Shown: one piece after another, positions 14,102-20,179 of the stretch
Position numbering within the stretch: the stretch's first letter is position 1
Layout: every line of letters starts with the position of its first letter
Source of the DNA: Escherichia coli
Lineage (GTDB): Bacteria > Pseudomonadota > Gammaproteobacteria > Enterobacterales > Enterobacteriaceae
DNA length: 64,000 nt
Reading direction: 5' to 3' (one strand)
NCBI RefSeq assembly: GCF_029227855.1
Contig: NZ_CP074356.1
The notes under the pieces: model-generated
The model's database searches: none
Told to the model about the DNA's origin: nothing
Seen by the model: only the letters and a program-made list of their open reading frames with translations
Position numbers and translations under genes: made by a program

Positions 14102-14683
14102 ATGAATACTTTTGATAATATTGTTTTAAACAGTGAGAAATATAAAAACATTACAATTAATAACAAGGGTGAAAATAATCATATATATATTGGACAAGGT
14201 TATAAAGATAAAAAATTAGTAATAAATTTTTTAGGGCGTGATAGTGTAATTAAGTTAGGTGATAATGTAAATTTTCAGGGGGTAATTACAGTTTCAACAA
14301 ATTCAAGAGTAACCATAGGAAATAATTTTGCATCTACAGGAGGTGTCACAATTATATGCAGAGATGATTGTAATGTATCAATTAATGATGATTGTATGTT
14401 TGCAACATCAATTCTAATCAGAACGTCTGATGAACACTCAATAATAGATTTGCACACTAACGAAATAATTAATAAAAATAAAGATGTTACAATTGGAAAA
14501 CACGTCTGGATATGTGATAACGTTCTGGTTTTGAAGGGGGCAATAATTGGAAGTGGTTCAGTTATAGGTGCAAGGAGTGTTGTGACTGGTACTATACCTG
14601 AGAATAGCTTATGTGTTGGGGTTCCTGCTAGAGTAGTAAAGAAAGATATAAGATGGGATAGAAAAAGACCCTCAAAACTATAA
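14102..14683 (+). CDS. hexapeptide-repeat (left-handed beta-helix) acyltransferase, probable capsule O-acetyltransferase
   Basis: 193 aa with repeated [LIV]-G-x-x-x-x hexapeptides (IGKHVWICDNVLVLKGAIIGSGSVIGARSVV); GAGGAG ribosome-binding site 8 nt upstream; AT-rich codon usage. Confidence 0.75.
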   Translation: MNTFDNIVLNSEKYKNITINNKGENNHIYIGQGYKDKKLVINFLGRDSVIKLGDNVNFQGVITVSTNSRVTIGNNFASTGGVTIICRDDCNVSINDDCMFATSILIRTSDEHSIIDLHTNEIINKNKDVTIGKHVWICDNVLVLKGAIIGSGSVIGARSVVTGTIPENSLCVGVPARVVKKDIRWDRKRPSKL

Positions 14684-14719
14684 TTTTAAAGGTCTGTTAT
14701 TGTCATCTTGATGATTGGT

Positions 14720-14756
14720 AAGGATAAACAAATGAATGTTTATCCTTGTTTTTTAT
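14720..14756 (+). terminator. rho-independent terminator after the acetyltransferase gene
   Basis: Perfect 11 bp stem aaggataaaca / tgtttatcctt with 6 nt loop, followed by gtttttt. Confidence 0.6.
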
Positions 14757-18214: not shown

Positions 18215-18220
18215 GATTTA

Positions 18221-20179
18221 TTATCCAATATTGTTTTTATAGTCAATGGTTTTTTTTATTAAGTTATAAGAAGCGATAGGGTTTCGTTTAACGCTTTTGA
18301 TAAAGACAAACGCCAAAGCTGTTTTCTTATTCTCTTGAGATAACATGATATGATTGGAGTTTAATAGACCAATAGGAGATTCAATATTTTTAGTTTTAAA
18401 AATACTGTTGTGAGTAAAATATAAGTTACATTCTTTTTTTGCGAACTTTTCGAACCCCAAATCACTTAATAATATTATGTCTGAATAGTCTTCAGTATAT
18501 ACTAAATTTGGATTGATAAGGTTGTATTCTTTATTCGGGTATTTAGAAACTAAAGTGTCTAGCAATAATTTGTCTGAGACAATATCTATACAATCAAAAC
18601 AATCGGTGTTGTCTAAGAGTGTATATAATTTATGTTGATTTATGTCTTTATACCCTTTCGCCCAGATAAGTAATCTTTTTGATAATTTATCCTTTAGTCT
18701 ATTGTTTCCTGCTTTTACTCTACGATAAAGTAAATCAGAATTCTCTCTGAATCCAAGAGGGTCTAATATATAATCATTCGAATCAATTGGTGACTTGAAA
18801 CTATAAAGAATTGGTTTGTTTGCTTTTTGTCTTATTCTATATAGATCATTTATGTGCAAGCTTAATGATTCATCAAAAATAATAAGTTCTGGGTTTTCTT
18901 TTGAAATGATTTTCAAAATGTCATCTTGAGCGAGATTTTGCGGGAGAATATGTTCACAAAATTGACTTACTTCTGAACCATATCGACCTGAATAAATAAA
19001 GACAGGGATAATATTACTATCATTATATAAATTAAAATAGAACTTAATTGCATGCACAGTGGATGCAGCAATTAACACTTTTACAGGGGTTATCGGTAAT
19101 GAAATATCCTGTTCATAAATCTCGTATGGGATATAATCCCTTTTATCATGTTCTGATTTAAATGTTATTCCTCTATATATTTTTTTCTCTAATCCCGTAA
19201 TAAATCTTTCAACGTGTCGCAACCCTTTTAAAAAATCCTTTCTTAATATGTTACATGCTGTTTCAAAACAGCTTGGGTTTACTGGTTGATTAATAAACTC
19301 AATGATTTCTTTTGCGAAGGTTGATATATCCCCATAAGGAACAACCCTAATAATTTCAGGAGGGGCTATTTCTGAGTTTCCGCCAACATCCCAACAGACT
19401 ACAGGTGTATATGTCGATAAAGACTCCAAAATAGCCATTGAGCAGTTTTCAAATTTGCTTAGAGATATAGCTACCTTAGCTCGGGATAGAAAATTAAATT
19501 TTTCATTTCCCTCAATATGTTCAAGGAAAGAAACATTAGAATACTCTTTAGATAAAGTGATTTTTTTCTCTTGTTTTCCGACAATAAAAATACTTAGATC
19601 ATTAGGTAAATTTTTTATGAGTGGTTCAATAAATTCAATTCCCTTAAGGTTGTTAAATCTGCTGAAGAAAATTACATCTATGTCTTTTTCAATTACACTT
19701 TTAAGAAGGTCTTTTTTTAGTGTGATTGGATTTTTATATACATGTATATTTGTAATGTCTAAATCATCTTTAAGTAGTTCTAACATGCCGTAAGATGGAG
19801 AGGAGACGGCTTTGGCTTTATAAATCGCTCTGCATTCATCTGAAAAACGAGCCTCATCAGGCTCTTCATTGATGATTCTTTTATATAGATGAAAGGGGCA
19901 ATGTAATCTGATATGTATATTTGCATCTTTTGGGAATAAAAGAGTTGGAGATTGTGATTCTGCTGCTTCAATTATTGTAGTGTGGTTTATTGCTTTTTTA
20001 TTTAAATTTAGATACGTGAATTTTCTAAAGTCTGGCATCGACATATCGTAAGGCTTTACAAACTCTTTATATGGGAAATCATAAACTTCATTGACTGTTT
20101 TAATATAATTAGTCACACCATTGCTGAATTCTGGATTATAGATAAAGTGATTGATGGATATTCTTTCAAGAGATTTCAT
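18221..20179 (-). CDS. two-domain glycosyltransferase (GT-B/GT4-like N-terminal half; C-terminal half of unclear family)
   Basis: 652 aa; ESLSTYTPVVCWDVGGNSE resembles the E-x7-E region of GT4 enzymes; the C-terminal half has a weak S-x-x-GFE motif reminiscent of KpsC/KpsS-type domains; 6 bp upstream of the next gene. Confidence 0.65.
   Translation of the reverse strand: MKSLERISINHFIYNPEFSNGVTNYIKTVNEVYDFPYKEFVKPYDMSMPDFRKFTYLNLNKKAINHTTIIEAAESQSPTLLFPKDANIHIRLHCPFHLYKRIINEEPDEARFSDECRAIYKAKAVSSPSYGMLELLKDDLDITNIHVYKNPITLKKDLLKSVIEKDIDVIFFSRFNNLKGIEFIEPLIKNLPNDLSIFIVGKQEKKITLSKEYSNVSFLEHIEGNEKFNFLSRAKVAISLSKFENCSMAILESLSTYTPVVCWDVGGNSEIAPPEIIRVVPYGDISTFAKEIIEFINQPVNPSCFETACNILRKDFLKGLRHVERFITGLEKKIYRGITFKSEHDKRDYIPYEIYEQDISLPITPVKVLIAASTVHAIKFYFNLYNDSNIIPVFIYSGRYGSEVSQFCEHILPQNLAQDDILKIISKENPELIIFDESLSLHINDLYRIRQKANKPILYSFKSPIDSNDYILDPLGFRENSDLLYRRVKAGNNRLKDKLSKRLLIWAKGYKDINQHKLYTLLDNTDCFDCIDIVSDKLLLDTLVSKYPNKEYNLINPNLVYTEDYSDIILLSDLGFEKFAKKECNLYFTHNSIFKTKNIESPIGLLNSNHIMLSQENKKTALAFVFIKSVKRNPIASYNLIKKTIDYKNNIG

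Follow-up and report, generated by a model that had tools for sequence, protein, structure and literature searches.

A probable K126 region 2 in an atypical group 2 capsule locus of Escherichia coli and the Kdo-containing polymer that it may direct

Which capsular polysaccharide is specified by a rare, AT-rich group of four genes in the kps locus of an Escherichia coli chromosome, and does it belong to a K type that has already been catalogued? In extraintestinal E. coli, resistance to serum, susceptibility to phages and targeting by vaccines or antibodies are all governed by the type of capsule. Here we analysed a 64,000-nt stretch of DNA (the window), in which the four genes occupy positions 14102-20179. 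[quoted passage not shown] Our analysis indicates that 14102-20179 is probably region 2, the serotype-determining cassette, of a group 2 (ABC-transporter, kps) E. coli capsule locus. We hold, with somewhat better than even confidence, an explanation in which the genotype is K126 of the kTYPr scheme and one of the nine 'atypical G2' Kaptive K loci, and in which the mechanism and the product are those proposed below.

Identity and architecture of the locus

The cassette comprises the following open reading frames (ORFs); GT denotes glycosyltransferase families and TPR tetratricopeptide repeats.

18221..20179, minus strand: 652-aa two-module protein (K126_9), with an N-terminal GT4 module and a GT-B-like C-terminal module of residues 331-652
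15812..18214, minus strand: 800-aa three-part protein (K126_10), with GT107 at residues ~40-360, TPR at ~430-560 and a GT29 fold at ~566-800
14772..15800, minus strand: GalE-family UDP-hexose 4-epimerase, 342 aa (K126_11), TIGR01179
14102..14683, plus strand: hexapeptide-repeat O-acetyltransferase, 193 aa (K126_12), convergent with galE

These ORFs lie exactly where four genes had been described, and Pfam and NCBIfam searches bear out the architecture attributed to them, that is, a two-module GT4 protein, a KpsC-like/GT29 fusion, GalE and a hexapeptide acyltransferase. In kTYPr (Nat Microbiol 2026, PMC13171606), K126 is a group 2A type with the reference NZ_CP074356.1:782101-798192. The supplement to that paper gives K126_9 as a 652-aa GT4 protein, K126_10 as an 800-aa protein with GT107 at 23-378, TPR at 428-564 and a GT29-like domain at 565-800, K126_11 as a 342-aa GalE and K126_12 as a 193-aa hexapeptide-repeat protein (PMC13171606). 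The window ORFs equal K126_9 to K126_12 in length and domain coordinates, and the identity rests on these: the same four K-specific ORFs carry the same domains, with no difference detected in lengths or domains.

A second match comes from Gladstone et al. (Nat Microbiol 2026, PMC13171598), in a gene table that carries the label 'KL105', which is an internal source-data label and not a final Kaptive KL number. The table agrees with the window gene for gene: kpsM of 780 bp and kpsT of 690 bp are followed by two glycosyltransferase genes of 1959 and 2403 bp and a UDP-glucose 4-epimerase gene of 1029 bp, the order kpsFEDUCS-kpsM-kpsT-region 2 is the same, and sizes and spacing are identical, although the 'KL105' definition ends at galE and leaves out the convergent acetyltransferase. 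The earlier view that the K antigen is not assignable from sequence is outdated, as the gene set is that of kTYPr K126 (PMC13171606) and of an 'atypical G2' locus (PMC13171598). The locus, its architecture and its domain annotation were already published in 2026, and no new entity is added here. The genotype is rare: among 5426 complete E. coli genomes in RefSeq, the whole 9.2-kb cassette stretch occurs in four, at 99.9-100% identity. All four carriers, JNEC-KY178, MRSN346647, MLI106K1 and GmM066 (genome records NZ_AP045174.1, NZ_CP018206.1, NZ_CP116931.1 and NZ_CM183652.1), are human isolates.

The surrounding capsule genes and the landmarks on either side are as follows.

31384-31459: tRNA-Phe (GAA)
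22248..30228, minus strand: region 1 (kpsS, kpsC, kpsU, kpsD, kpsE and kpsF), from ORFs and the RefSeq annotation of the identical locus
21866..21902, minus strand: JUMPstart element with ops GGCGGTAGCGT, ending 28 nt upstream of the kpsM ATG
21059..21838, minus strand: kpsM, ABC transporter permease, 259 aa (NF050053 KpsM)
20373..21062, minus strand: kpsT, ABC transporter ATPase, 229 aa (NCBIfam ABC ATPase matches, RefSeq)
ending at 13136: yghD/gspM, the last gsp gene

The kps locus thus occupies, between the type II secretion operon and the tRNA-Phe gene of the E. coli chromosome, the site of group 2 kps loci. The conserved group 2 genes kpsF, E, D, U, C and S and kpsM and T are all present at their expected sizes, as judged from ORFs, RefSeq annotation and family matches, in agreement with the earlier placement in a group 2 locus; NF050053 matched KpsM with 175.5 bits, under its curated cut-off of 300. 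From kpsF (30228) to galE (14772), all genes lie on the minus strand in the order kpsFEDUCS, kpsM, kpsT, 652-aa gene, 800-aa gene and galE, with region 1 co-directional with kpsMT and region 2. The acetyltransferase gene is convergent and sits at the far end, adjoining gspM. This is not the classical group 2 order, which has region 2 in the middle, flanked by regions 1 and 3, with regions 2 and 3 in convergent orientation to region 1. Having region 3 in the middle, the window matches instead the 'atypical G2' architecture reported in 2026 for nine K loci, with region 2 outside regions 1 and 3 (PMC13171598). The first-pass annotation had overlooked this order, in which region 2 adjoins gspM, together with the inclusion of kpsMT in the AT-rich block and the prior publication of the locus.

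Relative to classical loci, the unit made up of JUMPstart/ops, kpsM, kpsT and region 2 looks inverted, and hence lies downstream of region 1 on the same strand. The ops octamer GGCGGTAGCGT is found at 21877-21870 on the minus strand, 32 nt upstream of the kpsM start. Since JUMPstart/ops stands ahead of kpsM, the unit retains its normal direction, from the region 3 leader by way of kpsMT to region 2, and RfaH-dependent read-through from kpsMT into region 2 is predicted. In the 409-bp spacer between kpsS and kpsM (21839-22247), just the last ~56 nt before kpsM, which contain the JUMPstart, resemble the classical region 3 leader, and the rest is unrelated AT-rich DNA that is common to atypical loci. 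In kpsT, an identity of 97-98% to other atypical loci begins at 20459-20461, and the last ~29 codons (20373-20460) are type-specific. Because this identity stops inside kpsT while the KpsM accession, WP_032152072.1, is identical across three different atypical loci, the alignments suggest a recombination junction within kpsT.

The GT4/GT-B protein, the GT107-TPR-GT29 protein and GalE recur as a trio in an E. coli K6-type locus and in a Rahnella kps locus. In the K6-type region 2 (K6_7, K6_8 and K6_9; L005), the counterparts are a 655-aa GT4/GT-B protein (41% identity), a 781-aa GT107-GT29 protein (37%) and a GalE (59%). Unlike the window, the K6-type locus has the classical arrangement gspM-kpsM-kpsT-region 2, converging on kpsS; the gene order within its region 2 is reversed and without an acetyltransferase, and its kpsMT is just ~70% identical to that of the window. 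The Rahnella locus (L006/L007), whose host was recognised by what its flanking proteins are called, shares with the window the order kpsM-kpsT-653 aa-804 aa-galE, at 51-61% protein identity, and its cassette is likewise AT-rich (GC content of 0.30-0.36 in a 0.52-0.57 backbone), but it has the classical convergent arrangement with kpsS and is without kpsF and kpsU.

Gene products and the route that they suggest

The N-terminal module of the 800-aa protein carries the case for Kdo. Pfam Capsule_synth (PF05159) matches residues 96-332 (1.1e-37), and the best solved structure for the module is 6mgd (2.6e-57), the KpsC beta-Kdo 2,7 transferase of T. dismutans, with 6mgc also matched (2.7e-45). To either half of the KpsC encoded in the window, the module shows 34% identity, with a slightly better match to the C-terminal half (1e-56 for KpsC-C versus 2e-49 for KpsC-N). 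Q195xxxD199 and H233-P234 are invariant in nine full-length orthologues of the 800-aa protein; in KpsC and WbbB, the QxxxD and HP motifs carry the catalytic nucleophile (PMC12887879). The protein therefore keeps both motifs of KpsC, a dual beta-Kdo transferase of family GT107, but differs from it in having a single GT107 module that is encoded in region 2 and fused to TPR and a GT29 fold. Among known K structures, Kdo correlates with the presence of GT99- and GT107-like domains in region 2 (kTYPr, PMC13171606), and the region-2 GT107 domain with its intact motifs makes the Kdo-containing polymer that had been predicted very likely. With the 800-aa family as profile, a search of genome contigs missed the close orthologues and recovered nothing but remote GT107 relatives, in Bacillaceae, rhizobia, Halomonadaceae and other groups. 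To our knowledge, K13 KrkA is the only region-2 Kdo transferase that has been studied biochemically.

C-terminal to the TPR repeats lies a GT29-like domain of 235 residues, of which Pfam Glyco_transf_29 covers residues 586-665 (1.6e-10). An AlphaFold model of this domain, with 18 homologues as input, reached a pLDDT of 80.9, and sialylmotifs L, S, III and VS are conserved (VVGNxPxE..G..ID..IRFN, PSxGL, HYF and HxWxxE), which places the domain in GT29 by fold and by all four sialylmotifs. Bacterial GT29 sequences have been noted earlier, without an assigned function (PMC5811610). As genes of nonulosonic-acid pathways (neu, leg or pse) are absent from this locus, from the K6-type locus and from the Rahnella locus, we infer that the donor of the GT29-fold domain is CMP-Kdo; the family is inverting, and the product would therefore be alpha-Kdo. 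A 1106-aa relative of the 800-aa protein (P0052) has two tandem GT29-like domains. GT29-like domains recur among the atypical loci, as 'GT29 family' proteins are also encoded by two further atypical kps loci at the same site, those of E. coli TCM3e1 and CUVET20-PYO4 (L002 and L003): in one, the protein has 511 aa and is accompanied by a GT2 protein and an acyltransferase, and in the other, it has 1070 aa and is accompanied by a TPR protein.

In the 652-aa protein, the N-terminal module is matched by Glycos_transf_1 (PF00534, residues 164-299, 8.6e-14) and by PF13692 (2e-13), and its EX7E motif (E244 and E252) is near-invariant across 24 homologues. GT4 is a retaining family, and an alpha-linkage is therefore expected. 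Residues 331-652 had no Pfam match. The AlphaFold model of this C-terminal module (pLDDT 90.5) has a two-Rossmann, GT-B-like fold; Foldseek returned generic GT-B enzymes, and hhalign against GT107 gave a probability of 0.9%. The earlier description of a 'two-domain glycosyltransferase' is right at the level of the modelled fold. In Aeromonas, Vibrio, Plesiomonas and Neobacillus, direct fusion of GT4-module homologues (P0147-P0175) to a PF05159 (GT107) Kdo-transferase domain is common, and these fusions suggest that the GT4 lineage works on or with Kdo. More generally, GT4, GT107 and GT29-like modules are widely shuffled among capsule polymerases.

The epimerase was recognized by TIGR01179 with 437.8 bits (cut-off 262) and keeps the GxxGxxG NAD-binding motif, Ser125 and Y150xxxK154. 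As the first-pass annotation had observed, 4-epimerisation is the sole dedicated sugar-nucleotide step in the block, which holds no other pathway gene. The gatekeeper residue is Cys300, which aligns with Cys307 of human GALE and with Tyr299 of E. coli K-12 GalE. A small gatekeeper residue has been found by experiment to permit epimerisation of UDP-N-acetylglucosamine (UDP-GlcNAc) and UDP-N-acetylgalactosamine (UDP-GalNAc), and meningococcal serogroup E, whose capsule requires UDP-GalNAc, has the Cys allele (PMC5349592). The cassette enzyme is therefore predicted to act on both UDP-glucose/UDP-galactose (UDP-Gal) and UDP-GlcNAc/UDP-GalNAc. Because the housekeeping GalE (Tyr299) already makes UDP-Gal, a second epimerase of the Cys type argues for GalNAc over Gal. 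In the orthologous enzymes, the gatekeeper is Ser in the K6-type locus and Cys in Rahnella.

The acetyltransferase gave NCBIfam matches of the WbbJ/LacA/WcaF type, and its best solved structures were NeuO (3jqy, 1.7e-31) and OatWY (2wlc, 6.5e-23), both polysialic-acid O-acetyltransferases with which it aligns over nearly its full length. The SDGH His and VWVG Trp of NeuO are kept as His112 and Trp136, and both also align with OatWY. The gene is intact, with a good Shine-Dalgarno sequence, GAGGAG, ahead of its ATG, and the O-acetylation that had been predicted gains support from this resemblance to capsule enzymes. Some features set it apart from NeuO: polysialic acid, the substrate of NeuO and OatWY, cannot be its substrate; NeuO is prophage-borne, whereas the window gene is chromosomal and lies beside kps; and no tandem repeat was found in or upstream of 14102-14683 that would correspond to the 5' heptanucleotide phase-variation tract of NeuO.

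In Rahnella, DNA 67% identical to the acetyltransferase gene directly follows galE on the same strand (L006 12479-13063) and is split into several short ORFs, that is, it is a pseudogene. As this decayed homologue follows galE, the acetyltransferase is an old companion of the cassette; in K126 it is intact and inverted relative to galE, convergent where the fragmented Rahnella remnant is co-directional. A further copy was seen in strain MS14384 (ST131, NZ_LR130562.1; L004 11993-12541), where the gspM-proximal spacer and the acetyltransferase gene are 92.5% identical at the DNA level to window positions 12600-14623. There they flank a different atypical region 2, a KL112-like one that encodes a CDP-glycerol glycerophosphotransferase, and the acetyltransferase gene is a pseudogene with a frameshift, Tyr in place of the catalytic His (SDEYSI) and a 3' end cut by an IS3 remnant.

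The domain identities are those established above; the chemistry of the following route is our proposal. KpsS and KpsC would build the beta-Kdo glycolipid primer, with kpsF and kpsU supplying CMP-Kdo. The 800-aa protein would add Kdo from CMP-Kdo, as beta-Kdo by the retaining GT107 module and as alpha-Kdo by the inverting GT29-fold domain. The retaining GT4 module of the 652-aa protein would add an alpha-linked sugar from UDP-Gal or, more probably, UDP-GalNAc. The NeuO/OatWY-like acetyltransferase would O-acetylate the polymer, plausibly on the Kdo side chain, and KpsMT with KpsED would export it. The most likely product is an acidic, Kdo-rich, O-acetylated polysaccharide with GalNAc (or Gal). 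Within it, a polymer that contains Kdo and is O-acetylated is well supported, and Gal or GalNAc in the repeat unit is plausible. Specifically, the Cys-gatekeeper GalE and the NeuO-like acetyltransferase predict GalNAc in the polymer and O-acetyl on Kdo.

By gene logic, the nearest characterised analogue is csbABC of K. kingae, which encodes a GT-B N-acetylhexosamine (HexNAc) transferase, a KpsC-like Kdo transferase and an acetyltransferase, and makes alpha-GlcNAc-(1-5)-beta-(8-OAc)Kdo; in K. kingae type a, a single protein of 811 aa, CsaA, unites a GalNAc-transferase with a Kdo-transferase domain (PMC5070880). The likeness drawn here is one of gene content, and the K. kingae systems, unlike the window, are without a GT29-fold domain, TPR or a dedicated epimerase. 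With that analogy, the K. kingae gene logic and the GT4-PF05159 fusions count for a HexNAc-Kdo reading.

We also put forward, tentatively and with little confidence, a more specific possibility. The 800-aa protein could be a capsule polymerase of an uncharacterised kind, in which a retaining GT107 beta-Kdo transferase and an inverting GT29-fold alpha-Kdo transferase, bridged by TPR, make a mixed-anomer Kdo backbone, and the C-terminal module of the 652-aa protein could represent a new GT-B family, a glycosyltransferase or an acceptor-binding module, that couples a GalNAc branch or primer. If true, this would be the first function assigned to a bacterial GT29 enzyme.

Composition of the polymer and competing explanations

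The repeat unit suggested by the first-pass annotation was Kdo plus a galacto-configured sugar. Its Kdo component stands, and the galacto sugar has become one reading only, given the GT29-type domain and the Kdo-only oligomers from K6. Two findings that would have spoken against the original prediction did not emerge: we found no identity to a region 2 with a Kdo-free polymer, and the epimerase and the acetyltransferase look functional, as far as their sequences tell.

Several points weigh against the explanation that we favour. When the K6 capsule was partially hydrolysed, it gave Kdo-only oligomers in MALDI-MS (PMC13171606), so that GT4 and GalE may have no part in the repeat unit. Bifunctionality is predicted from the Cys gatekeeper, which is silent on the product that is used. 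For none of the bacterial GT29-like enzymes has a donor or product been demonstrated (PMC5811610). The full-length JUMPstart match to Rfam RF01707 scored 32.8 bits (E = 3e-4), just under the gathering score of 35.

The K6 result leads to the most serious alternative, in which the polymer of K126 is in essence a homopolymer of Kdo with two linkages or anomers, made by the GT107 and GT29-fold modules, with O-acetyl on Kdo; the contribution of GT4 and GalE would then be limited to a cap, a side branch that is minor or labile, or a primer or transition sugar attached to the beta-Kdo linker. K6 has the same three biosynthetic genes as K126, and the kTYPr authors ascribe its Kdo oligomers to the dual GT29-GT107 protein (PMC13171606). 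The GT107 module, moreover, most resembles the one in KpsC that adds Kdo to Kdo (6mgd and KpsC-C, at the values given above), and both ulosonic-acid-type domains have strictly conserved motifs. On the other hand, the K6 oligomers were obtained after partial hydrolysis, and the same authors leave K6 as 'unknown structure' (PMC13171606). GalE and the GT4 protein are conserved with the 800-aa protein in K126, K6 and Rahnella, which would be costly for one priming residue, and the fusions of GT4 to Kdo transferases and K. kingae CsaA/CsbAB suggest alternating HexNAc-Kdo polymers. We regard a homopolymer as unlikely, though deserving of serious attention.

K6 is historically listed with alpha-Kdo, which fits an inverting, GT29-type Kdo transferase, and the historical K6 strain may differ from the current one; the typed K6 relative is at odds with the historical K6 structure. 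Chemical interest centres on the K126/K6 polymer, on the bacterial GT29-fold (putative alpha-Kdo) transferase and on the family-less second module of the 652-aa protein, and strains of type K126 or K6 lend themselves to study of the polymer.

Expression raises a different doubt. The rearrangement could have removed the normal promoter of the unit of region 3 and region 2, leaving a cryptic or poorly expressed relic that makes no capsule. The limited resemblance of the 409-bp kpsS-kpsM spacer to the classical region 3 leader (~56 nt) would fit such a relic, as would the decay of the related acetyltransferase in MS14384 and Rahnella. We consider it improbable, however, as all ORFs are intact and identical in four genomes of unrelated source, JUMPstart/ops is retained, and the unit lies downstream of region 1 and co-directional with it. 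In addition, an isolate with another atypical locus (KL144) is K-positive, and there are sizeable clusters of atypical loci within lineages from bloodstream infections (PMC13171598).

Still less credible is a capsule with sialic, legionaminic or pseudaminic acid besides Kdo, in which the GT29-fold domain would be a true sialyl- or nonulosonic-acid transferase using a CMP-nonulosonate made elsewhere in the genome. The fold and all four sialylmotifs are indeed as in GT29 sialyltransferases, and the acetyltransferase is most similar to polysialic-acid O-acetyltransferases; yet within the loci themselves, here and in K6 and Rahnella, there are no neu, leg or pse genes, and all of these loci lie beside CMP-Kdo-using machinery, with kpsF/kpsU also carried by the E. 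coli loci.

The classical K14 antigen is 6)-beta-GalNAc-(1-5)-beta-Kdo-(2-, O-acetylated, and would fit the composition of GalNAc, Kdo and O-acetyl predicted here. We rejected this identity on comparison with the literature and consider it extremely improbable, because K14 forms its own kTYPr cluster, whose genes pair with K12 and K157 and none with K126, because K14 ranks with the four or five most frequent K types and a cassette as rare as this one is therefore not K14, and because its beta-GalNAc needs an inverting transferase, whereas the GT4 module is of a retaining family.

Boundaries and neighbourhood of the AT-rich block

The cassette had been described as far more AT-rich than its flanks. 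For composition this holds: the GC content of 14102-20179 is 0.305, compared with 0.551 for the gsp genes (58-13136) and 0.513 for kpsFEDUC (23515-30228). The extent needs revision, since the AT-rich block spans 13137 to about 22247 and also takes in kpsT (GC 0.349), kpsM (0.341) and two intergenic spacers. The accompanying proposal of horizontal acquisition agrees with the foreign composition and with the homologous, equally AT-rich cassette in the Rahnella kps locus. In blastn comparisons with other loci of the same architecture, the type-specific DNA is 13651-20460, its right edge lying inside the 3' end of kpsT. Smaller features of the block are as follows.

14717..14750, plus strand: hairpin with a 14-bp stem and a T-rich tail, in the 88-nt gap between the convergent acetyltransferase gene and galE
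13137..14101: AT-rich spacer (GC 0.282) between yghD/gspM and the acetyltransferase gene, with no RefSeq feature

On a consensus scan, the hairpin is a candidate terminator. The 965-bp spacer (13137-14101) is present in just 52 of the 5426 genomes. By blastn, its bases 13137-13650 are common to other atypical kps loci, and bases 13651-14101 are common only to the KL112-like locus of strain MS14384. A 67-aa ORF with an ATG start, absent from the RefSeq annotation, is found in this spacer at 13319-13522.

Inversion scars were sought as inverted or tandem repeats at the ends of the block, and only short AT-rich matches of doubtful significance were found. A 24-nt inverted repeat at 14045-14068 and 20208-20231 (21 of 24 positions complementary) exactly brackets the four-gene cassette. 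On each sense strand the repeat reads ACAAnCAAAAAATAAnTTnCAATA, and its two arms are ~30-55 nt upstream of where translation of the acetyltransferase and of the 652-aa protein starts. It is not present in the K6-type or Rahnella loci, and could be either a chance occurrence in AT-rich DNA or a common regulatory or junction sequence. A promoter scan was uninformative in such AT-rich DNA (59 sites observed versus 52 expected). PADLOC defence-system models gave zero matches, and weak Rfam matches to mir-1422 and ceN22 were judged to be chance.

At the other end of the locus, the tRNA-Phe gene lies ~1.1 kb past kpsF and is adjoined by an IS110 transposase fragment; in the JNEC-KY178 record, tRNA-Phe is missing from the feature table over the corresponding stretch. 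Past the matched stretch, that record continues into a CP4-like island with a CbtA/YeeU toxin-antitoxin pair, an antirestriction gene and a TIR-domain protein. It would correspond to window positions from about 31000 to 64000, and further contains remnants of IS1/IS3/IS66, tssF/tssG in truncated form, an AAA protein of 1652 aa and a cytosine methyltransferase accompanied by a NotI-family endonuclease.

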